From an uncultured Bdellovibrionales bacterium (GTDB taxonomy: Bacteria; Patescibacteriota; Minisyncoccia; Moranbacterales; UBA1568), in the NCBI GenBank assembly GCA_964384235.1, contig CAYLJX010000005.1:5289-69288 (forward strand): a stretch of DNA of 64,000 bases. Reading direction: 5' to 3'. The notes below the pieces were generated by a model that saw only the letters and a list, made by a program, of their open reading frames with translations, was not told the DNA's origin and searched no databases. The position numbers were made by a program, and so were the translations under genes. Within the stretch, counting starts at the first letter, position 1; each line of letters opens with the position of its first letter. Of the stretch, positions 7,587 through 62,618 are shown in pieces.

Positions 7587-8735
7587 TTATTTGCGAATGG
7601 GCATCATGAGATAAATATATCGTTGATCTGGTTTTTGCGTTTCATCCATCATCCGAAGAGCGGCTGGGGTAGTGCTCGCATTCGCCAGAAAGACTATTTT
7701 TTCACCCGAGAGCGCCGAAAGTCCCTCGAGAATGTAGCGCGGATTGAAAACCATCCGAAGCTCTCCCTCTCCCTGAAGAAATTGCACCGGAAGCACCGTC
7801 TGATTTTCCCCGATTTCCTGGGATTGTGATGCGACGATACAGATATTTTTCCCTGTATCGAAAGAGAGCGAAACCTCTCCGGAGCTGTACGACGAAAACG
7901 TGCTGGCGATCTTTATCGCCCGCAACAGATCCTCTTTTTGAAAGATTCCCTGGACAGAGAAGGTTTCCGGGAGAATCTGCTTGTAATCAGGGAATTTTCC
8001 GTTGATGCTCCGAGAAATCACCTGTGCCTCGTCTATCCCGAAGAAAATCTGATTCTCCTCCAGGGCGATCTTCACTTCCTTACTTTCCGGAGTGATGACG
8101 CGGAAAATTTCCTGAAGGGTGTTCGCAGGAATGATAAGAGTGGGATTCTTCTGAAGAAACTCTCGGTAACCAGCCCCGAGATCGGAAAGTATCACCTTTT
8201 CTTCCGCCAACCGGAAACTGTCCGTCGCCACGATATGCATTTCCCCCTCAAAAAATGAGATATACGCCCCGGTAAGTTCGAGTCGAGCCTCATTGATGCT
8301 GACACAAAAAAGAATGCGTGAGAGGGCATTTTTGAGCTCCTGGGCTGGTAAGGCGAAGAAATATTCCTTCTTGTACTGAGGAATGATAGGAAAATCCTTT
8401 CCATCCAACCCTTTCATCTTCATCTGATAGGTCGAAGCGGTCACTTTAAGTGTCTGTCCTTCCGTTTCCAACTCCAACACATCCCCCGAGGGAAGATTAT
8501 GGATGAAATTAGAAAGAATCTTGGCCGGGACCGTGATCCGCCCCTCCCGCTCGATCTTGGCCCCGATATGGGAGATGACACCAATCTCGAGATTGGTGGC
8601 GGAAAGCTTCAATCTTCCGTTCTCCGTCTCCAAAAGAAAGTTACTGAGGATAGGAAGAGTGGTTTGTTTTCCTACGACTCGTTCAAGATGAGAGAGGGCT
8701 CGACTCAGATTTTCCTGCGTACAGACCAGTTTCAT
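7587..8735 (-). CDS. dnaN: DNA polymerase III beta sliding clamp
   Basis: 382 aa; N-terminus MKLVCTQENLSRALSHLERVV...LPILSNFLLE typical of DnaN; immediately downstream of dnaA. Confidence 0.92.
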   Translation of the reverse strand: MKLVCTQENLSRALSHLERVVGKQTTLPILSNFLLETENGRLKLSATNLEIGVISHIGAKIEREGRITVPAKILSNFIHNLPSGDVLELETEGQTLKVTASTYQMKMKGLDGKDFPIIPQYKKEYFFALPAQELKNALSRILFCVSINEARLELTGAYISFFEGEMHIVATDSFRLAEEKVILSDLGAGYREFLQKNPTLIIPANTLQEIFRVITPESKEVKIALEENQIFFGIDEAQVISRSINGKFPDYKQILPETFSVQGIFQKEDLLRAIKIASTFSSYSSGEVSLSFDTGKNICIVASQSQEIGENQTVLPVQFLQGEGELRMVFNPRYILEGLSALSGEKIVFLANASTTPAALRMMDETQKPDQRYIYLMMPIRK

Positions 8736-9005: not shown

Positions 9006-10427
9006 CTAACTGTAATACAGGCGTTCTTTCAGGACACTAAGTTCTTCTTTGAGGCGGAGATTCGTTTCCCTTCCCGTATCTATCTTTTCAAACGCGTGCA
9101 GGGCGGTCGTGTGGTCACGGCCACCAAGGAGTTCCCCGATGGTGGAAAACGGCGTCTGGAGTTCGCTTCGGAGGAGGTACATCATGACCTGGCGCGGATG
9201 GGCAATCTCTTTTTTCCGGCCCTTTTTCACCAGATCTTCCTTGGTGACACCGTAATAATCGACGATGACCTTGAAAATATCGTCTGACTGGAGATTTTTC
9301 TTGTTGATCTCGATGAGCTGAGCAAGGATTTTCTCCGTATTTTCCAGAGTCGGAGGGAATTTGTGGAATTCCGAGTAGGCGATGACGCGGTTGAGTGCTC
9401 CTTCTAGCTCGCGGATGTTCTGGGTGATGTGTTCGGCGATGTAGCGGAGCGCGTTTTCCTCGATTTGAAAGCCTTTTTCATCCACTTTTGACTGCAGGAT
9501 GGCGAGACGGGTCTCCAGGGTCGGACGGCTGATATCGGTGATCATACCCCCTTCAAAACGGGAACGGAGCCGGTCTTCCAGAGTCGGAATAGCCTTGGGC
9601 GGGCGATCGCTCGAGATGACGATCTGTTTGTTGAGCTGGTACAGGGCATTAAAGATATGGAAAAACTCATTCTGGGTCTTTTCGCGACCGGAGAGAAACT
9701 GCACGTCGTCGATGATGAGGAGATCCATCTGCTGGTAGTATTCCTTGAACTTGTCGATGTTCTGATTCTTGATGGAATCGATGAGTTCGGTGGTGAATCG
9801 TTCGGAAGTGATGTATTTGATGCGTTTTTCCGGAGCATTTTTCACCACTTCGTTGCCGATGGATTGGAGGAGATGGGTCTTTCCCAGGCCGACACCACCA
9901 TAAATGAAGAGCGGGTTGTACACCATCCCGAGGTTTTGTGAAACGGCGTAGCAGGCCGCGCGGGCGAGTTCGTTGTTCTCGGCCACGATGAAATTCTCGA
10001 AGGTGTAGCGGCTGTTGAGATTGGATTCGTGAAAAACAGGCGTACTCGGTGCCTGTGCCGGAGAGCCGAAAAACGGCTTCTCAATGATCTTTTTCCGGAC
10101 AAATCCGGTTTCCACCGATACCGAACCGGGCGCCTTGACGGCATCGATGTTTTTGACGGGATTCTGTGGAGGAAGAGGTTTGTCTTGGGTGATGAGGCAG
10201 CGGATTTCCTGGATGTCCGGCTGGATTGATTTGAGAGCCCGGAGGATGTAGAGATTATACTTATTTTCCAACCATTCCTTGGCAAAGCCGTTCGGGACGG
10301 CGATAGTGACCACCCCGTTTTCATTGCTCAGGACGCTGGTATTCTTGAACCACGTGACGAAATTCGCCTTGGAAATGGAAAGTTCTATCTGTCCCAAAAC
10401 CGCTTTCCAAAGCTCTTCGTTGGTCAT
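9006..10427 (-). CDS. dnaA: Chromosomal replication initiator DnaA
   Basis: 473 aa; AAA+ Walker A GVGLGKTHLLQSIGNE; C-terminal DnaA-box-binding domain; canonical origin context. Confidence 0.95.
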   Translation of the reverse strand: MTNEELWKAVLGQIELSISKANFVTWFKNTSVLSNENGVVTIAVPNGFAKEWLENKYNLYILRALKSIQPDIQEIRCLITQDKPLPPQNPVKNIDAVKAPGSVSVETGFVRKKIIEKPFFGSPAQAPSTPVFHESNLNSRYTFENFIVAENNELARAACYAVSQNLGMVYNPLFIYGGVGLGKTHLLQSIGNEVVKNAPEKRIKYITSERFTTELIDSIKNQNIDKFKEYYQQMDLLIIDDVQFLSGREKTQNEFFHIFNALYQLNKQIVISSDRPPKAIPTLEDRLRSRFEGGMITDISRPTLETRLAILQSKVDEKGFQIEENALRYIAEHITQNIRELEGALNRVIAYSEFHKFPPTLENTEKILAQLIEINKKNLQSDDIFKVIVDYYGVTKEDLVKKGRKKEIAHPRQVMMYLLRSELQTPFSTIGELLGGRDHTTALHAFEKIDTGRETNLRLKEELSVLKERLYYS

Positions 10428-19583: not shown

Positions 19584-20465
19584 TTATAAGGAGTGAAGCG
19601 AAGATTTTCCTGAATGTTTTTTTAGGGCATACTCGACGATGTGTTCGGCGGGGTTGATGCCGGTGGCTTTCTTGAACGCCTGCCACTGCGGAGTATGGTT
19701 GACTTCCAAAATGCTGTATCCGGAGGAGGTTTCCACGAGATCCACTCCGGAGACTTCGTATCCTAGCGTGGCAGTAGCCTGTCTGGCGATATCTTCCATT
19801 GCTGGGGTTGTTGCGATTGCCTCACTCTTTGCTCCAAGGGAAGCATTTGAACGTATGTCACTATCGAGTACATGTCGTCGGATGGCGCCGAGCACTTTGC
19901 TGCCGATAATAAAAATGCGGATATCGGAACGTATCGGCAGATATTCCTGAAAGAGGTGAGATCTGGAATGTTCCTTGAAAAAATCAAGGACCTCACCTTT
20001 CGTTTTGAGGAGCGAGATATCTTCCCCGCGAGCGCCATCAATCGGTTTGGCTATGAGCGGCAGACCAAGATGTTCCAGGGTTGTTTCAAGGATTTCAAGA
20101 GAGGACGTATAGAGGGTTTTCGGGTGTGGGAGTCCTGCACTTTGGAAAAGTTGCGCTTGGGAAGCTTTGTTGGCGATGTCCTTGGTGGCGACAGCATCAT
20201 CAACGATTGTTTTTTTTGCATGGAGCGCGGCGCGGCTGAGGATTCTTGCCAAGCGAAAGTTTTTCTCGAATCCGCGAAAGAGAAAGATGTCCGTTTCATC
20301 GAGAAGAGAGATGTCATTCCATATCACGCGGAAGGAATGGTCCTCCGAGAAGAATCCGATCTCGGAGAGGAGGGTGGTACGGGACTGATGGCCGGCCTTC
20401 TCTATCGCCTCGATGAGGTCGAGGGTGTTTTCCGATCGACGCGATCCGATGATGGTAAAGCGCAT
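19584..20465 (-). CDS. RimK-like ATP-grasp ligase (alpha-L-glutamate ligase family)
   Basis: Internal ATG (MRFTIIGSRRSEN) used as start; the track ORF begins at a TTG at 20642 that overlaps the upstream gene. RimK-like motifs: LPLIAKPIDGARGEDI, DIRIFIIGSKVLGAIRR, DIRSNASLGAK, GVDLVETSSGYSILEVNHTPQW. Confidence 0.7.
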   Translation of the reverse strand: MRFTIIGSRRSENTLDLIEAIEKAGHQSRTTLLSEIGFFSEDHSFRVIWNDISLLDETDIFLFRGFEKNFRLARILSRAALHAKKTIVDDAVATKDIANKASQAQLFQSAGLPHPKTLYTSSLEILETTLEHLGLPLIAKPIDGARGEDISLLKTKGEVLDFFKEHSRSHLFQEYLPIRSDIRIFIIGSKVLGAIRRHVLDSDIRSNASLGAKSEAIATTPAMEDIARQATATLGYEVSGVDLVETSSGYSILEVNHTPQWQAFKKATGINPAEHIVEYALKKHSGKSSLHSL

Positions 20466-20472
20466 AAGAATT

Positions 20473-21477
20473 TCAGAGCGAAAGACCGGGGAAGAGATCG
20501 TTGAGGAGGATTCCTGATATGTCGGTCGCTGTGCCCTCGACGAGCGGTTTTTCGTGCATGTTGTGGTAGGGGCGGGAATTGATTTCCAGAATGGTGTATT
20601 CTGATCTGCTGATATCCGGAGAAATGATGTCGATTCCGGCAAAGGTCAGACCGACCGCCTCGGTCGCGGCGATGCAGGCAGCCTTGGTGTCGGGATGGAC
20701 CTCGGATGTGCAGTCGATGGCGCGACCGCCGTCCGACATGTTGAGATTGTGTCGCAGGCGAAGCGTAGATCCTTTGGGAAGCACCGAACGGAAAGTCAGA
20801 TGCTCCTTTTTCAGGGTGGCCCTTACGGATTTGTCGATGCGTATCTCGAATCCCTTGTCACGTGTTTTATTGAAGGCTTGGATAAGTTCATCGATGGATG
20901 ATGTACCGTCGCCGATGACACTTGCCGGAACCTTGTTGACGCAGGCCAAGACCCTGTTTTTGAAGACGATGAGGCGGTATTCTTTTCCATCAACCATCTC
21001 TTCGACGATGAAGGGTGCCTTCCCCTTGTCTTTGGAAGCTTTTGAGAATTTCTGTGCCAAGGGAATAGCCTGCGCGAGTTCTTTCTGGGAGGAAATGTTC
21101 CAGGTGACTCCTCGGGCGAGCGATGAGTCCAGCGGTTTGCAGATGAGAGGGAAAGAAAGAGAAGACGTTTTTATTTTCCGTCTGCATTCCGAGAGCGAAG
21201 AAGCGACGATCCCTTTCGGGACGGAGATGCCGTTTTCCATCAGAACCGTTTTGGTGGCAAGCTTGTTGGTGACGGCTGCGTTGCCGTACCTCTTCGTAAG
21301 AGGGATATACCATTCGGTCGTAAAGATATCCTTCCCGTCGTAAGAGAGCTTGTATACTTTCGGTGCATCCATAAGGATCTCGACCGAAACCCCGAGCTCG
21401 AGAGCGCGGTTCATGAACGATCTGAATCCGCCGTGCTTGAAGCGTTTGATGTCTTCTTTGGTGAGTACTTTTTTCAT
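20473..21477 (-). CDS. Cyanophycin-synthetase-N-terminal-like ATP-grasp ligase
   Basis: Start taken at internal ATG (MKKVLTKEDI), 7 nt after the upstream stop. Strong resemblance to the CphA-type ATP-grasp: PASVIGDGTSSIDELI, LRLRHNLNMSDGGRAIDCTSEVHPDTKAACIAATEAVGLTFAGIDIISPDIS...ILEINSRPYHNMHEKP. Confidence 0.65.
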   Translation of the reverse strand: MKKVLTKEDIKRFKHGGFRSFMNRALELGVSVEILMDAPKVYKLSYDGKDIFTTEWYIPLTKRYGNAAVTNKLATKTVLMENGISVPKGIVASSLSECRRKIKTSSLSFPLICKPLDSSLARGVTWNISSQKELAQAIPLAQKFSKASKDKGKAPFIVEEMVDGKEYRLIVFKNRVLACVNKVPASVIGDGTSSIDELIQAFNKTRDKGFEIRIDKSVRATLKKEHLTFRSVLPKGSTLRLRHNLNMSDGGRAIDCTSEVHPDTKAACIAATEAVGLTFAGIDIISPDISRSEYTILEINSRPYHNMHEKPLVEGTATDISGILLNDLFPGLSL

Positions 21478-21484
21478 AATGGTC

Positions 21485-22897
21485 TTACTTGTGCTTATTC
21501 GTATCGATAAGAAATCTTCCCAGATTTTTCCGTCCGATGATGACAGGGTATTCCAGCTGTGATCGGTCGATGATCGATACGCGAGCGGGGATTTCCGCGC
21601 CGTCGAGAACAAAGGATATCTTCACCTTCGGTCGCATCGTGAAGCCGTTGGAGGAATAGGTGAATGCGATGCCGTCCAGGTCCGGGTGGGCATTCTTGTA
21701 TTTCGCATCGTACTGGTCCGAAACCTGTTTCAGTTCCTCGCGGTTTCCGGATTCCGGCTTCGGAATGGTCTCGAAAAACTCGAGCACCGAAGAAAATCCC
21801 AACTGTTTGGCGAGTTCGGTGTCGATGGAGGTGGAGTCGGCGCCGGTGTCGATCTTGGCCTCCACCTCGATCTCCTTGCCGTCCTTGCCGATGAGCTTCA
21901 CTTTCTCCACGGTGCCGATGACGCGCTTGCCGGAGAGCTCCTCGATTTCCTCCTCGATCTCGCCGCCGAAGATGTTTTTCGCGACGCGCATGCCGTGCTC
22001 GACGGATTTGATCTTGAGACCTTGGACGCGCGTGAGGCGTTCCTTGAGACCGGAGAGGTTGGCGAGCTGGATGGAGAGTCCCGGGCGGGCGTTGAGCTCG
22101 AGGATGACCGGGCCCTGTTCGCGGTCGATGGCGATGTCGGCGCCGAGGAAACCGAGGCCGGAGATCTCCTGTGCCTGGATGGCCATGCGGAGGATGTCTT
22201 TCCAGTAGGGGATCTTGATACCGGAGAGGACCAGGCGGGTGCCGGGGACGTATTCGATCAAGTGTCCCTTGCCGAGGATGGCGGTCGTCGTGGTGCCGGA
22301 GGCGAGGTCGATGCCGACCCCGACCGCACCCTGCTGAAGGTTCGCCTTGCCGTCGGAGGCACGCGTCGGGAGGCGAAGCATCGCCATGACGGGCACGCGG
22401 TTGAAGACGATGACGCGGATGTCGGGGATACCCTTGAAGGTGTAGGGCTTGAAGAGTTTCAGGAGCTTGAGACGTTCCTCGAAAAAGGCGACGTCGGGAG
22501 TGTTGGCGAGGGAGAAGGAACCGTCGAGGATGTTTCGGATATGGTTCTTGAGGTCCTCGATGGTGATGACGGTGCCGTCGGCCTTGATCCATCCATCGAC
22601 ACCGTTCTTCTTACGCGCGTAGACGACGAGGATGCCTTCACCGCCGAAGCCGCGATTGGGCTTGAGGGCGAAGCTGTTGGGTAGGGTCGACCAGTCGAAA
22701 CGTTCCAGTTCCTCATGGGTGCGGATCTTGCCGATCAGTCCGGAGACGCCCAAACCGTTTTTCTTGAGGATGCGTTTGCAGAGGAGTTTGTTGTCGGCGA
22801 TCTCCCGGCCATGCGCGCGGTTGTAGGAGCGGATGTAGGAGAGGTTCCGCGCGTTCATGCCGAGGAGGCCACGGCTTTTGGTGAAGAGTTCGAGCAT
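21485..22897 (-). CDS. Fusion: alpha-L-glutamate-ligase-related ATP-grasp (N-terminal) plus clan AA DTGA retropepsin-like protease domain (C-terminal)
   Basis: N-terminal LGMNARNLSYIRSYN...FALKPNRGFGGEGI...GADIAIDREQGPVILELNARPGLSIQ is ATP-grasp-like. The C-terminal ~150 aa carry the DTGA active-site signature (EAKIDTGADSTSID) and a ...VIIGRKNLGRFLIDT tail typical of DUF785/RimK-associated aspartic proteases. Confidence 0.65.
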   Translation of the reverse strand: MLELFTKSRGLLGMNARNLSYIRSYNRAHGREIADNKLLCKRILKKNGLGVSGLIGKIRTHEELERFDWSTLPNSFALKPNRGFGGEGILVVYARKKNGVDGWIKADGTVITIEDLKNHIRNILDGSFSLANTPDVAFFEERLKLLKLFKPYTFKGIPDIRVIVFNRVPVMAMLRLPTRASDGKANLQQGAVGVGIDLASGTTTTAILGKGHLIEYVPGTRLVLSGIKIPYWKDILRMAIQAQEISGLGFLGADIAIDREQGPVILELNARPGLSIQLANLSGLKERLTRVQGLKIKSVEHGMRVAKNIFGGEIEEEIEELSGKRVIGTVEKVKLIGKDGKEIEVEAKIDTGADSTSIDTELAKQLGFSSVLEFFETIPKPESGNREELKQVSDQYDAKYKNAHPDLDGIAFTYSSNGFTMRPKVKISFVLDGAEIPARVSIIDRSQLEYPVIIGRKNLGRFLIDTNKHK

Positions 22898-22961
22898 AGT
22901 CTAAAAAGACAAAAGGCAAGAGGCAGTAGGCAGGAGGGAGAAAAAGAATTCAACGTGCCTT

Positions 22962-23618
22962 TTAAAAGTTTCGCAAGATTTTTCGGAAGCGAAAATATTC
23001 TGTCAGTCGCAATCCCGTCCACTTGCCGAGGCCGAGGTTCACGAGGAACGTGAAGAGTACGGCCCACGGATACTGCAGGAAGAAGGTGGTGAGCGTTTCG
23101 GAACTCACGAGGAAGTAGCCGACGACAGAGATGATGAGCGTTTCGACGGCGAGGAGAAAGGCGACGCGCGTGCCCTTTTCGATCTGGGTGGCGACGAATT
23201 TTTCCGTGAGCGTGATCATGATGAGGAGGGGGAAGATGGAAACGGACGCCAGGCCGGTGCGCTGGAACATGCCGCCGAAGACGAGGATGCCGAGGATGGC
23301 GAGCGAGACGATGGAGAGAGTGATGGCGACGCGCGGGAGGTAGAGGAGGCGGAAGCGCCGCAGGGCGTAGCGCGAGAGCATTCCCACCAGGATGATGGCG
23401 ACAAAGATGGCGATGCCGTACTTCACGCCGTTCGGATCAAAGGCGAGCAGGGCGAACGTGATGATGGACGGCGTATAGATGCCGAAAGCCTTGATGCCGA
23501 CCACCTGGCGGAAGAAGGCGACGAGCGTGGCGATGACGGGCAGCATCAACAGGAGCTGTACCGTCTGGAGCGGCACGCCCTGTTCGACGAAGAAGAGGAT
23601 GAAAGGATGGTAGTCCAT
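22962..23618 (-). CDS. Polytopic (~6-7 TM) membrane protein, first gene of the ATP-grasp operon (7TM module of ATP-grasp/transglutaminase-type systems?)
   Basis: 218 aa from ATG 23618 (MDYHPF); almost entirely hydrophobic helices; position upstream of the ATP-grasp genes. Confidence 0.45.
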   Translation of the reverse strand: MDYHPFILFFVEQGVPLQTVQLLLMLPVIATLVAFFRQVVGIKAFGIYTPSIITFALLAFDPNGVKYGIAIFVAIILVGMLSRYALRRFRLLYLPRVAITLSIVSLAILGILVFGGMFQRTGLASVSIFPLLIMITLTEKFVATQIEKGTRVAFLLAVETLIISVVGYFLVSSETLTTFFLQYPWAVLFTFLVNLGLGKWTGLRLTEYFRFRKILRNF

Positions 23619-23735
23619 ATGCTTAAAAACTCGAAATACGAAACCCGAAATACTAAACAAATCCTAAAATCGAAGCGATAAATCCCAAATACTCGTTTAA
23701 AATTTCTGTTTTGAAATTTAGATTTTGTTTCGGAT

Positions 23736-24233
23736 TTAGGTATTCGAATTTCGGATTTTTTCCATCCTTCTCCTGCTCGCATGGCAGAGCGCGATGGCGA
23801 GGGCGTCGGCGGTATCGTCGGGCTTCGGGATGCTCGGGAGCTTCAGGACGCTCTTCACCATCAATTGTACCTGGGTTTTGTCCGCTCTCCCATAATTCGT
23901 CAAGGCCTGCTTGACTTCCAGGGGAGTGTAACCGGAAATACTAACACGTAAACGCTCCAATGTCAAGAGAATGACGCCGCGTGCCTGTGCTACTGAAATG
24001 GCGGTTTTTTGGTTGTTGAAGAAGAAGAGTTCTTCCACTCCCGCCTCTTCCGGCCGGTACTGATCGACGATGGCTCCGATATCGTCGGCGATTTCCGCGA
24101 GACGCTTCTCAAGGGGCAGATCTTTGGACGTCGAAATATGGCCGTAGGCGACCGAAACCGCCTTCCCGCCGTTTGTTTCGATGACGCCCCACCCCACCGT
24201 CGCCGTCCCCGGATCGATGCCTAAAATGCGCAT
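23736..24233 (-). CDS. ruvC: Holliday junction resolvase RuvC
   Basis: MRILGIDPGTATVGWGVIE... with catalytic D and E residues. Internal ATG at 24233 is used as start; the track start 24338 is an upstream extension. Confidence 0.85.
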   Translation of the reverse strand: MRILGIDPGTATVGWGVIETNGGKAVSVAYGHISTSKDLPLEKRLAEIADDIGAIVDQYRPEEAGVEELFFFNNQKTAISVAQARGVILLTLERLRVSISGYTPLEVKQALTNYGRADKTQVQLMVKSVLKLPSIPKPDDTADALAIALCHASRRRMEKIRNSNT

Positions 24234-28178: not shown

Positions 28179-31100
28179 CTATTCTTCCGTGACGCGTTCG
28201 ATCTCTTCGAGAGTGGTCTTGCCTTCGAGGACGGAGAGAATGCCGTCCTGGGCGAGGGTGATCATGCCGTTCTCGATCGCCTTGCTTTCGATCTCGTGGG
28301 CGAGCGCTCCTTGGGTGATCAGGGCGGCGATGTCTTTGTCGAGAGAGAGGACCTCGCTTATGATGACCTGCCCGTTGAAGCCGCTCCCGTTGCATTCGGG
28401 GCAGCCCTTGGCACGGAAGAGGGAAACAGTGTCAGATACCTGTTTTTTGAGTGCGGGTGGCAGCGTGGCGATGATTTTTTCCATGAGCGCGCGTTCTTCC
28501 GGGGTGGTGTCGGATTTTTCTTTGCAGTGGTCGCAGAGGCGGCGCACCAGGCGCTGCGCGATGAAGGCGTTCCCGGCGTTCGCGAGATCGTCGCTGCTGA
28601 TACCCATGCCGAGAAGGCGGGGAATGGTGCCTGAGGCGTTGTTGGCATGGAGCGTCGAGAGGACGAGGTGGCCGGTGACGGCGGCCTGGACGGCGATTCC
28701 CGCGGTCTCCTGGTCGCGGATCTCACCGATCATGAGGATGTCAGGGTTCTGCCGGAGAAGCGAACGGAGTGCGGTGGCGAAGGTGTATCCGTCCGCCTCG
28801 TTGATCTGGGTCTGGAGCAGTCCCGGGATCTGATACTCGATCGGGTCCTCGACGGTGATGATCTTGATTTCCGGCGTGTTGATGTGGGAGAGGAGGCTGT
28901 AGAGCGTGGTAGTCTTGCCGGAGCCGGTCGGACCGGCGTTGAGGATGATGCCATAGGGCTTCTTCACGGCTTCCAGGATGCGGTCGAGGTTTTCCTGGCG
29001 GATGTCGAGGGACTCGAGCTTGAGGGAAGTGGCGGACTTGTTGAGGAGACGCATCACGACCGTCTCGCCGAAGCCGCCGAGGATGAGCGAGAGACGGACA
29101 TCGATCTTGGTGTCGGTGACGGAGCCGTAGGGTTCCTGGAGGGTGAGAGAGAAGCGTCCGTCCGTGACCCCGGCGCGTTCGCCTGATTTCAATCCGGCGA
29201 AGATCTTGATCTGGCCGAGGATGGCCGGGTATTCGTCCAGAGGAAAGGAGAGGGCGTTCTTGAGAATGCCGTCGATACGGTAGCGGACCAGGACGTTCTC
29301 TTCGGTCGGTTCGATGTGGATGTCGCCGGCCCGCAGGAGGAGCGCCGCCGCAAAGACCGTCTTGAGGAAGGTCTGCTGGTCGATCGTCCCGACGTAGGCG
29401 GCGAGGTCGTCGAGCGAGGCGAGGTGGGTTTCGGTTTCCGCGAGGATCGCCGGCGAGAGGAAGGAGTGCGACGAGAGGGCGCTCGGCATGAGTTCCGCGT
29501 AGACTTTCTTGAGCATGTCGCCCTGATCCGCCACGCGCCAGACTTCCTCGAAGGTGGTGATGCCCTCGATGGCCTTGAGGATACCGTCCTGGGTCATGGT
29601 GATCATACCGTCCTCGAGGGCGACCTTGGTGATCTCGTCTTCGGTGCCGAGATCGTTGATGATCTTGATGAGGGTCGGGCTCATGACGAAGACTTCGAAG
29701 ATGCCGATCCGGCCACGATAGCCGGTGAAGTGACACTCCGCGCAGCCGGCCGCTTTCCAGAGCTTGTCGATGGTCTTGGGGACGGTGATCTTGGCCTTGG
29801 GGGAAACGATGGAGATGAGCTGCTTGAGGGAGGCGACGGTCTCTTCGGCCGGGGCGTAGGACTCTCTGCAGGACGGGCAGAGCTTGCGGACGAGGCGCTG
29901 CGCGATGAGGGCGTTGACGGAAGAAGTGATGAGGTTCGGTTTGACGCCGAGCTCGAGGAGGCGCGGGATGGAGGCCGGGGCGCTGTTGGCGTGGAGCGTC
30001 GAGAGGACGAGGTGGCCGGTGAGGGCAGCGTTGATGGCGATGTCGGCGGTCTCGTCGTCTCGGATCTCGCCGACGAGGATGACATCCGGGTCCTGGCGGA
30101 CGACGGCGCGCAGGGCTTGGGCGAAGGTGTAGCTCTTGCTTTTGGAGACCTCCGTCTGGAGGATGCCGGGAAGGTTGTATTCGATCGGATCCTCGACGGT
30201 GATGATCTTGACGCCGGGCTGGTTGATGGTGTTGAGCAGACTGTAGAGTGTGGTGGTCTTGCCGGAGCCGGTCGGACCGGTGTTGAGGATCATTCCGTGA
30301 GGCTTCTCGATCTGCTTGCGCACTTCCTCATAGGCGAGGCCGCGCAGTCCGAGGTCTTCTACTTCGACGATGATGTCGTCGCTACTGAGGAGACGCATGT
30401 TGAGGCTTTCACCGTGCTTGCCGGGGATGCTGTTGACACGGATGTCGATACGCTTTTCATCCATGGTGACGAAGAAGTGTCCGTCCTGGGCCCGGTCCCG
30501 CACGTTGAGGCGCATCTTGCCGAGCATCTTGATGCGGGAGAGCGCGAGGTGATAGATATCCGGGGAAAATTTCCCCACGTCTTGCAGGACGCCGTCGATA
30601 CGGTAGCGGAGGCGCGCATCATCTTCTTCCGGTTCGATATGGATGTCGCTCGCCTTCATCTTCTTGGCGCCGGCCAGGATGACTTCCAGGATGTTCGAGA
30701 CGGAAGTCTGGTGCAGGTTGTCCTTGAGCTGGAGGAGGGCGCCGAAGTTCTCCTCGAATTTCTCGAGATCGTTTCCCGAGAGGTTGACCCGTATCAGGTC
30801 CAGGCTTTCCAAGAGCGAGGTCCGGGTGTAGGCGGCGAGGGCTTTCTCGAAGGACGGTCGGGAAACGACGTGGAGAGTGGTATCCCAGCCATGCCCGGAG
30901 GCGAGTGTCTGAACGTACTCGAGCGTTGCCTGGTTTCCAGGATCGACGATGGCGATGTGGGTCGTCTCGCCGGTCTTCTGGAAGAGGGCGACCTCATGTT
31001 TCTTTGCGTCTTCCTTGGGAATGAGCGCGAGGTCCTCGGGATCGAGCGGGAAGAGGTGGAGATCGATATAGGAGAGACCGTTTTTGGCGGCGAGTGTCGC

Positions 31101-31208
31101 GGCCTCCTCTTCGATCGAGGCTTCGTGCATCTTCTTGAGGAGCGCGTCGGCCCTGGCTTGCTTTTCGGGATCGCCGATTGAAGGGATGGAGGAGATGACT
31201 TTGGGCAT
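28179..31208 (-). CDS. Tandem-fused double GspE/PilB-family secretion ATPase (N1-N2-CTD-N2-CTD in one polypeptide)
   Basis: 1009-aa uninterrupted ORF. An N-terminal T2SSE_N domain is followed by two complete ATPase modules, each with Walker A GPTGSGKTTTLYSLL, an Asp box, Walker B DPDVILVGEIRD / NPDILMIGEIRD, a His box TGHLVLSTLHAN and a tetracysteine motif (CPSC...CAEC and CDHC...CPEC). Confidence 0.85.
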   Translation of the reverse strand: MPKVISSIPSIGDPEKQARADALLKKMHEASIEEEAATLAAKNGLSYIDLHLFPLDPEDLALIPKEDAKKHEVALFQKTGETTHIAIVDPGNQATLEYVQTLASGHGWDTTLHVVSRPSFEKALAAYTRTSLLESLDLIRVNLSGNDLEKFEENFGALLQLKDNLHQTSVSNILEVILAGAKKMKASDIHIEPEEDDARLRYRIDGVLQDVGKFSPDIYHLALSRIKMLGKMRLNVRDRAQDGHFFVTMDEKRIDIRVNSIPGKHGESLNMRLLSSDDIIVEVEDLGLRGLAYEEVRKQIEKPHGMILNTGPTGSGKTTTLYSLLNTINQPGVKIITVEDPIEYNLPGILQTEVSKSKSYTFAQALRAVVRQDPDVILVGEIRDDETADIAINAALTGHLVLSTLHANSAPASIPRLLELGVKPNLITSSVNALIAQRLVRKLCPSCRESYAPAEETVASLKQLISIVSPKAKITVPKTIDKLWKAAGCAECHFTGYRGRIGIFEVFVMSPTLIKIINDLGTEDEITKVALEDGMITMTQDGILKAIEGITTFEEVWRVADQGDMLKKVYAELMPSALSSHSFLSPAILAETETHLASLDDLAAYVGTIDQQTFLKTVFAAALLLRAGDIHIEPTEENVLVRYRIDGILKNALSFPLDEYPAILGQIKIFAGLKSGERAGVTDGRFSLTLQEPYGSVTDTKIDVRLSLILGGFGETVVMRLLNKSATSLKLESLDIRQENLDRILEAVKKPYGIILNAGPTGSGKTTTLYSLLSHINTPEIKIITVEDPIEYQIPGLLQTQINEADGYTFATALRSLLRQNPDILMIGEIRDQETAGIAVQAAVTGHLVLSTLHANNASGTIPRLLGMGISSDDLANAGNAFIAQRLVRRLCDHCKEKSDTTPEERALMEKIIATLPPALKKQVSDTVSLFRAKGCPECNGSGFNGQVIISEVLSLDKDIAALITQGALAHEIESKAIENGMITLAQDGILSVLEGKTTLEEIERVTEE

Positions 31209-62515: not shown

Positions 62516-62618
62516 GCTGATATAATGAAATTGTCATGCTGAACTTGTTTCAGCATCTTTTCCGGGAAAACATTGTAAAGATTCCGAAACAAGTTCGGAA
62601 TGACGGGTCAAACGTTGT

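Follow-up and report, generated by a model that had tools for sequence, protein, structure and literature searches.

Retropepsins paired with ATP-grasp ligases have recently been described in two bacterial systems. In Pseudomonas, rloA-rloB-rloC encode a secreted retropepsin, an inactive transglutaminase joined to a seven-transmembrane (7TM) domain, and an ATP-grasp protein (Lormand et al., mBio 2025, PMC12239564). RloA, for which there are crystal structures, is a dimeric retropepsin that cuts runs of at least eight Glu residues in vitro, and mutagenesis showed that K46, R114, and R137 bind polyGlu, with D48 as the catalytic residue (PMC12239564). Loss of the three RloA paralogues leads to defects in hypo-osmotic tolerance, cell shape, biofilm formation, and beta-lactam tolerance, and deletion of rloB or rloC suppresses the defects of protease loss, suggesting that the RloC ligase and the RloB 7TM protein make what the protease must process; RloB was reported to be 96% proteobacterial (PMC12239564). 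In the second system, RimB trims polyGlu and stimulates poly-alpha-Glu synthesis by RimK fourfold, both enzymes act on the tails of RpsF, and a naturally occurring RimB-RimK hybrid was purified and found to have proteolytic activity; RimBK has been reported chiefly from Flavobacteriales and Rhodobacterales (Little et al., JBC 2025, PMC11957791). Here, we analyze a cluster of four minus-strand genes in a 64-kb stretch of contig CAYLJX010000005.1 (the window, 64,000 nucleotides in all), which its named homologues assign to Candidatus Moranbacteria/Moraniibacteriota of the Candidate Phyla Radiation (CPR). We consider it probable that this locus is the Moranbacteria form of the Rlo system, in which a 7TM protein and a ligase-retropepsin fusion form a core that would make and trim an acidic, alpha-linked peptide or tail.

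A first-pass annotation had predicted four co-directional genes separated by 7-64 nt and ending in a terminator, and had linked them to computationally predicted 7TM/ATP-grasp/DTGA systems of which no member was said to be characterized. The gene layout was borne out in full, as the spacers in the order 7TM gene, fusion gene, gene 3, and gene 4 are 64, 7, and 7 nt, and an independent gene caller gave the same products (218, 470, 334, and 293 amino acids) on environmental contig L084, which carries an identical locus. The claim that nothing was characterized is outdated by the two 2025 papers, with the rloABC genetics and RloA structures in one (PMC12239564) and the purified RimB-RimK in the other (PMC11957791). 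The core consists of the following features:

22962-23618, minus strand: gene for the stand-alone 7TM membrane protein, 218 amino acids, PF14402
21485-22897, minus strand: gene for the ligase-protease fusion, 470 amino acids, PF14397/TIGR02291 plus PF05618
21968-22897, minus strand: predicted RloC-type ATP-grasp amide ligase domain, fusion residues 1-310, PF14397
21914-21967, minus strand: acidic linker GGEIEEEIEELSGKRVIG, fusion residues 311-328, invariant
21488-21913, minus strand: predicted retropepsin-like aspartic protease domain (RimB/RloA family), fusion residues 329-470, PF05618

Judged by their sequences, all three parts of this core are homologous to Rlo components. Hidden Markov model searches returned the domains that had been assigned to the four proteins (PF14402, PF14397, PF05618, the TIGR02068 region, and TIGR00768), and the window proteins align to all three products of the canonical operon of Desulfotalea, which supports the proposed link to the 7TM/ATP-grasp/DTGA systems. 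As in rloABC, the PF05618, PF14402, and PF14397 families stand together in one operon.

The ligase domain of the fusion matched PF14397 with 233 bits (E 5e-69) and is 43% identical to the ligase of the canonical three-gene operon of Desulfotalea (E 8e-72), while its score against the RimK subfamily model TIGR00768 was 38.6 bits with a cutoff of 143.4. An AlphaFold2 model of the fusion had a mean predicted local distance difference test score (pLDDT) of 80, and the top Foldseek matches of its ligase domain in the PDB were RimK, ArgX, and LysX. An alignment of 96 homologues shows no variation at K79, in the GFGGEG loop, at D254, or in E267-x-N269, and the E-x-N metal-binding motif, read from the translations, is retained by all three ligases of the cluster.

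For the protease domain, the PF05618 score (28.3 bits, gathering score 27) agrees with a match to PDB 9g58 over the entire domain (E 1.7e-6), where 9g58 and 9g59 are the sequences of the RloA crystal structures, and with 26% identity to the Desulfotalea operon protease (E 2e-10). In BFVD, the folds matched by its structure model include those of phage acid proteases, HIV-1 Pol, and a DDI1-type peptidase, and these matches to aspartic proteases confirm, for the modeled structure, the retropepsin fold that had been predicted for the C-terminal domain. The motif EAKIDTGADSTSID was found in the translated fusion, with the codon of the catalytic D350 at 21848-21850. In our own reading of the 9g58 alignment, K46, D48, R114, and R137 of RloA correspond to K348, D350, R422, and R445 of the fusion, and D350-T-G-A together with K348, R422, and R445 is invariant among the 96 homologues, so that the catalytic DTGA and the K/R/R set that coordinates polyGlu in RloA are both conserved. 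The NCBIfam equivalog models for RloA1-3 gave 31 bits against cutoffs of 210-280, suggesting that the protease is a member of the family and not an RloA orthologue. No signal peptide or hydrophobic segment was found in the fusion (maximum 19-residue hydropathy 1.2), and residues 326-470 hold no cysteine. In its sequence features, the protease resembles the cytoplasmic RimB rather than RloA, which is secreted and has disulfide cysteines.

Between the two domains, the linker is predicted with a pLDDT below 50, and its sequence is conserved: G311, G312, E313, I314, E315, E319, S322, G323, and G328 are invariant in the 96 homologues, and E316, E317, and E320 are nearly so. The consensus FGGEIEEEIEE.SGK can be followed into fused relatives as distant as about 45-54% identity and erodes in those more distant still. 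A role as pseudosubstrate or self-processing site is speculation, since the longest Glu run in the linker is three, and contiguous Glu runs of at least 5-6 (PMC11957791) and at least 8 (PMC12239564) are needed by RimB and RloA, respectively.

The 7TM protein matched PF14402 with 96 bits (E 3e-27), and it aligned solely to positions 305-507 of the 508-position NCBIfam RloB model and to residues 307-498 of the RloB-like protein of Desulfotalea (27% identity, E 3e-10). These alignments make it a homologue, by sequence, of the C-terminal, membrane half of RloB. As the match is limited to the last ~200 positions, the transglutaminase-like half is absent, and accordingly the PF14400 domain is missing from the 218-amino-acid window protein, whose start codon is backed by 50 homologues; the 120 homologues listed are all 217-235 amino acids long. 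The AlphaFold2 model (pLDDT 70) has seven transmembrane helices and a C-terminal helix. Basic residues are concentrated in loops 87-96 and 140-151 and in the C-terminal tail, which, with positive-inside charges and the topology read by eye, implies an N-terminus outside and a C-terminus inside the cell.

Several features set this core apart from rloABC. The protease is C-terminal on the ligase and cytoplasmic, unlike the secreted RloA, the 7TM protein is without the periplasmic transglutaminase-like domain of RloB, the gene order is B followed by the C::A fusion instead of A-B-C, further ligases follow in a variable cassette downstream of the core, and the host is a CPR bacterium. RimB-RimK provides the closest likeness for the fusion itself, as a cytoplasmic retropepsin physically coupled to an alpha-L-glutamate-type ATP-grasp ligase and a single-polypeptide precedent with protease activity. 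However, RimBK starts with the protease and has a true RimK as its ligase, whereas the fusion of the window has the opposite domain order and a ligase of RloC type; no 7TM partner accompanies RimBK.

Relatives of the fusion were found in at least 450 species-representative genomes, from which we kept 80 loci with fusions 51-83% identical to that of the window. The fusion is full length in all of them except L064 and L077, which are truncated by the contig end. A tblastn map placed it in nearly all loci within the order RuvB...YebC-RuvC-7TM-fusion-[variable genes]-PBP1A, and in every locus with both ends present the 7TM and fusion genes are adjacent and co-directional, separated by a median of 22 nt (82 loci). 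The conserved unit is thus the 7TM protein and the fusion at one syntenic site. The fused protease and the stand-alone 7TM protein, which had been described as departures from the known architecture, are indeed present, but this is the usual state in Moranbacteria and related CPR lineages and not a peculiarity of this locus. What is new here is a variant of the Rlo type, widespread in Moranbacteria, in which the protease is cytoplasmic and fused to the ligase, the 7TM partner is bare, and the ligase cassette varies.

The two remaining genes of the cluster and its end are the following:

20473-21477, minus strand: gene 3, CphA-G-like accessory ATP-grasp ligase, 334 amino acids, TIGR02068 region
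19584-20465, minus strand: gene 4, accessory RimK-family ATP-grasp ligase, 293 amino acids, TIGR00768
19561-19585, minus strand: intrinsic-terminator-like hairpin with a 10-bp stem, a 5-nt loop, and then a T-run, which ends the cluster and overlaps the stop codon of gene 4

Genes 3 and 4 belong to the lineage-variable cassette and not to the conserved core. The fusion lies 179-5,517 bp from the PBP1A gene in relatives, and among 59 complete loci we counted about 33 cassette arrangements, a number that is based on ORFs and approximate, with 0-4 accessory ligases each. The three distinct ligases that had been taken as part of the architecture are therefore present here as one state of this cassette and not as a fixed set. 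Cassettes of relatives contain three kinds of ATP-grasp ligase and Mur ligases resembling the M domain of CphA (the L002 ligase matches that domain of cyanophycin synthetase, TIGR02068 positions 481-860), sugar-handling genes (GT4 glycosyltransferases, YdjC, and a PMT_2 glycosyltransferase), MATCAP peptidases, DUF3541, and uncharacterized proteins of 550-650 amino acids. At least three genomes (L049, L054, and L073) keep the core with zero cassette genes.

Gene 3 matched positions 203-472 of the cyanophycin synthetase model TIGR02068 (205.6 bits, E 1e-60, cutoff 850) and residues 217-482 of PDB 7wac (E 6e-39), which corresponds to the G-domain region only, without the N and M domains of CphA. 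Its orthologues in relatives are 44-51% identical, where the core genes are 63-78% identical. Gene 4 passed the RimK subfamily model TIGR00768 (155.4 bits, cutoff 143.4) and matched E. coli RimK 5zct (E 7.6e-21), and it fell below the cutoffs of the S6-ligase, MptN, and LysX equivalog models (PRK10446, 79.8 bits against 331). From its sequence, it is a RimK-family ligase that passes no equivalog model for known substrates, and its top relative is 44% identical, compared with 63-78% for the fusion in the same genomes.

Fusions in more distant relatives add to this picture. In a census of the 150 best clusters at 50% identity, the ligase occurred alone (45 clusters), with a retropepsin (43 clusters), with MATCAP in proteins of ~790 amino acids with or without a detectable retropepsin-like domain (~47 clusters), with retropepsin and YdjC (1 cluster), and fused to a 7TM domain (3 clusters, including one from the cyanobacterium Oscillatoria). 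Of the 42 cluster representatives that are about as long as the MATCAP fusions (740-830 amino acids; P0258-P0380), 39 lack the D[TS]G[AS] motif, in contrast with the invariance of DTG in the clade of the window, and the retropepsin-like domain of these fusions is probably an inactive scaffold, as far as its sequence suggests. In the CPR relative L089 (1870-3420), a 7TM protein with N-terminal PKD domains in place of the transglutaminase-like domain occupies the same YebC-RuvC-7TM-fusion site. Stand-alone ligase relatives (~40% identical) lie in operons with PF05618, then PF14400 plus PF14402, then PF14397, an order seen in Desulfotalea psychrophila and Persicirhabdus sediminis. Full-text literature searches on the Pfam and TIGRFAM identifiers, and on MATCAP/DUF1704 with ATP-grasp, returned nothing. 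As a separate observation, DUF3541 is fused to RimK-type ligases in L006, L009, L017, L044, L063, and L070, stands alone in the cassettes of L047, L048, and L057, and lies beside the Oscillatoria 7TM-ligase fusion (L090, 8633-9811).

In the mechanism that we propose, the ligase domain would add amino acids, most likely glutamate, in an ATP-dependent manner through alpha-peptide bonds, giving either a free acidic oligo- or polypeptide or the extended C-terminus of a target. A retropepsin homodimer would cleave acidic stretches and in this way set the chain length or release the product, as RimB does for RimK, and the 7TM protein would couple the chemistry to the membrane as exporter, anchor, or acceptor, with ligase and endopeptidase acting at the cytoplasmic face of a dedicated membrane protein. 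The CphA-G-like and RimK-family ligases would probably lengthen the product or make it more diverse. Which amino acid is used, what the product is, and how the 7TM protein takes part are what we infer here. Moranbacteria are probably single-membrane bacteria without a periplasm, and this would explain why two periplasmic elements of Rlo, namely the RloA signal peptide and the RloB transglutaminase-like domain, are absent or relocated.

Some observations weigh against this assignment to the Rlo system. The score of the fusion against TIGR02291 (292.7 bits) is below the trusted cutoff of 314.2, the domain that defines RloB is the one absent from the 7TM protein of the window, and what points to glutamate is solely the set of conserved basic residues in the protease sequence. 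The protease of the window also appears to be cytoplasmic, whereas RloA is secreted, so the order of export and cleavage may differ from that in Pseudomonas. Finally, a search of the 64-kb window for ORFs with an acidic C-terminus or an acidic run found no credible candidate, as the single acidic-tailed ORF is a spurious overlapping one, and we count the missing target against the assignment.

A possible, if rather doubtful, alternative is that the locus is a protein-tailing system. Acidic residues would be put by the ligases on the C-terminus of a specific protein encoded elsewhere (an envelope protein, for instance, or ribosomal protein S6) and taken off again by the retropepsin, a reversible change like that made by RimK and RimB on RpsF or by TTL and MATCAP on tubulin. 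The action of RimK and RimB on RpsF tails speaks for this reading, and the cluster holds no gene for a substrate; as had been pointed out, no substrate ORF can fit in gaps of 7-64 nt. Gene 4 passes the RimK-family model, but it fails the S6-ligase equivalog by the margin given above and is missing from most relatives. In relatives, the ligase is also fused to or paired with carboxypeptidases of the MATCAP type, a family that takes the C-terminal tyrosine off tubulin. This pairing of an ATP-grasp ligase with MATCAP, the two being fused in ~47 of the 150 listed relatives, recalls the tubulin tail code (TTL/TTLL with MATCAP/CCP). This resemblance is confined to the write-and-erase logic and the domain families, and the window has no MATCAP. 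A ribosomal target would not explain why a membrane protein is the invariant partner, the only acidic C-terminus in the window is on the spurious ORF, and the Pseudomonas study found no encoded polyGlu protein (PMC12239564).

The neighborhood of the cassette suggests another reading, which we consider unlikely, in which the ligases build a peptide on a sugar- or lipid-linked envelope precursor, either of a surface glycopolymer or related to peptidoglycan, the 7TM protein handles the lipid-linked intermediate, and the variable cassette generates surface diversity among strains. The cassette always adjoins the PBP1A gene, but three relatives have PBP1A on the opposite strand and the terminator separates it in the window, so the linkage may be plain synteny. 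Relatives' cassettes hold GT4, homologues of YdjC-type sugar deacetylases, PMT_2, and CphA-M/MurE-like Mur ligases, and the 7TM protein of one relative carries extracellular PKD domains, yet the cassette of the window has no sugar-handling gene, and L049, L054, and L073 at least keep the core without any cassette. The ~33 arrangements in 59 genomes, with cassette orthologues far more divergent than the flanks, and the cell-shape, beta-lactam-tolerance, and hypo-osmotic-tolerance defects of Pseudomonas rlo mutants (PMC12239564) would fit envelope decoration; the conserved basic residues of the protease suggest an acidic peptide over a stem-peptide substrate. Very improbable, in our view, is a cyanophycin-like store, in which CphA-G-like and CphA-M-like ligases would make a branched poly-amino-acid reserve with the retropepsin as depolymerase. 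Like CphA1, the cassettes have a G-like ligase, with the alignment of gene 3 to the G domain at E 6e-39, and in relatives an M-like one, as in L002, but these are split into dispensable stand-alone genes that rarely co-occur, there is no N domain, and the scores miss the cutoffs by a wide margin (205 bits against 850 for cyanophycin synthetase). A storage granule would also leave the obligatory 7TM partner unexplained.

On the same strand, the locus is followed by the PBP1A gene, and upstream of it lie the genes for RuvC, YebC, a bPH_2-domain protein, and RuvB. In L002 (6587-7064, complete genome CP064994), ruvC is split over two frames, either by a sequencing error or as a pseudogene, and the near-identical contig L003 has an intact ruvC. 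We rejected a defense system as the identity of the cluster, as a PADLOC search with all four proteins gave no match.

Upstream of the 7TM gene lies one further feature:

23625-23760, minus strand: AT-rich imperfect palindrome that spans the ruvC stop codon and the ruvC-7TM spacer and runs into the ruvC 3' end

The 117-bp region upstream of the 7TM gene (23619-23735) is 71% AT, and the palindrome, with 59-nt arms that are 71% complementary, is real. Its suggested function as an operator is not supported, as relatives have gaps of -4 to 902 nt between ruvC and the 7TM gene, with unrelated sequences that show no conservation, and the predicted RNA fold of -34.6 kcal/mol is marginal against shuffled sequence (z = -2.0). 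Many of these gaps are shorter than 25 nt, suggesting that in such relatives the 7TM-fusion pair is probably read through from ruvC. In the window, the 117-bp spacer yielded no sigma-70-like promoter, and the nearest one is inside ruvC (23966-23938). An Rfam search of the region returned no family, and we rejected a riboswitch or leader because the sub-threshold match, which was miRNA-precursor-like, reflects the AT-rich hairpin. Hairpins are over-represented at the ruvC-7TM position (z < -2 in 9 of 33 relatives and z < -3 in 5 of them), and they may be ruvC terminators or repeat elements rather than an operator. The ruvC-7TM spacers of L017, L034, L036, L052, L023, L019, L018, and others hold palindromes of tandem 7-9-nt AT-rich units whose sequence differs from genome to genome. 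The sole other long, close-spaced palindrome detected in the window is an inverted repeat at 62533-62604, with 28-nt arms that are 86% complementary and a 16-nt loop.

Elsewhere in the window, dnaA (9006-10427) and dnaN (7587-8735) lie on the minus strand, and the GC skew switches sign near 8 kb; the replication origin therefore probably lies at ~10.4-11.1 kb, which is only 9-13 kb from the Rlo-like locus. A 1009-amino-acid protein encoded at 28179-31208 (minus strand) has two T2SSE (PilB-like) ATPase stretches and an MshEN domain, and a counterpart lies upstream of ruvB in L001.

The 2025 Pseudomonas work leaves the question of what RloB and RloC make, a product with an influence on cell shape, on beta-lactam tolerance, and on the formation of biofilms. 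The CPR version reduces the system to two proteins, a bare 7TM protein and a single-chain ligase-protease, with all catalytic and substrate-binding residues kept, and this minimal core is probably more tractable for reconstitution and structure determination. The existence of 7TM-ligase fusions, together with the exchange of the external domain (transglutaminase-like, PKD, or none), argues for a direct partnership between the 7TM module and the ligase. Our findings also extend the Rlo family well beyond the Proteobacteria, and the variable cassette suggests a modular chemistry. On a tentative reading that we hold to be decidedly unlikely, the core would be a platform on which a rapidly exchanging cassette of amide ligases, Mur-type ligases, glycosyltransferases, and peptidases builds lineage-specific, non-ribosomal acidic (glyco)peptides for the CPR cell surface. 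If so, the locus would be a peptide counterpart of the diversification of O-antigen and capsule loci, possibly driven by host cells or phages.

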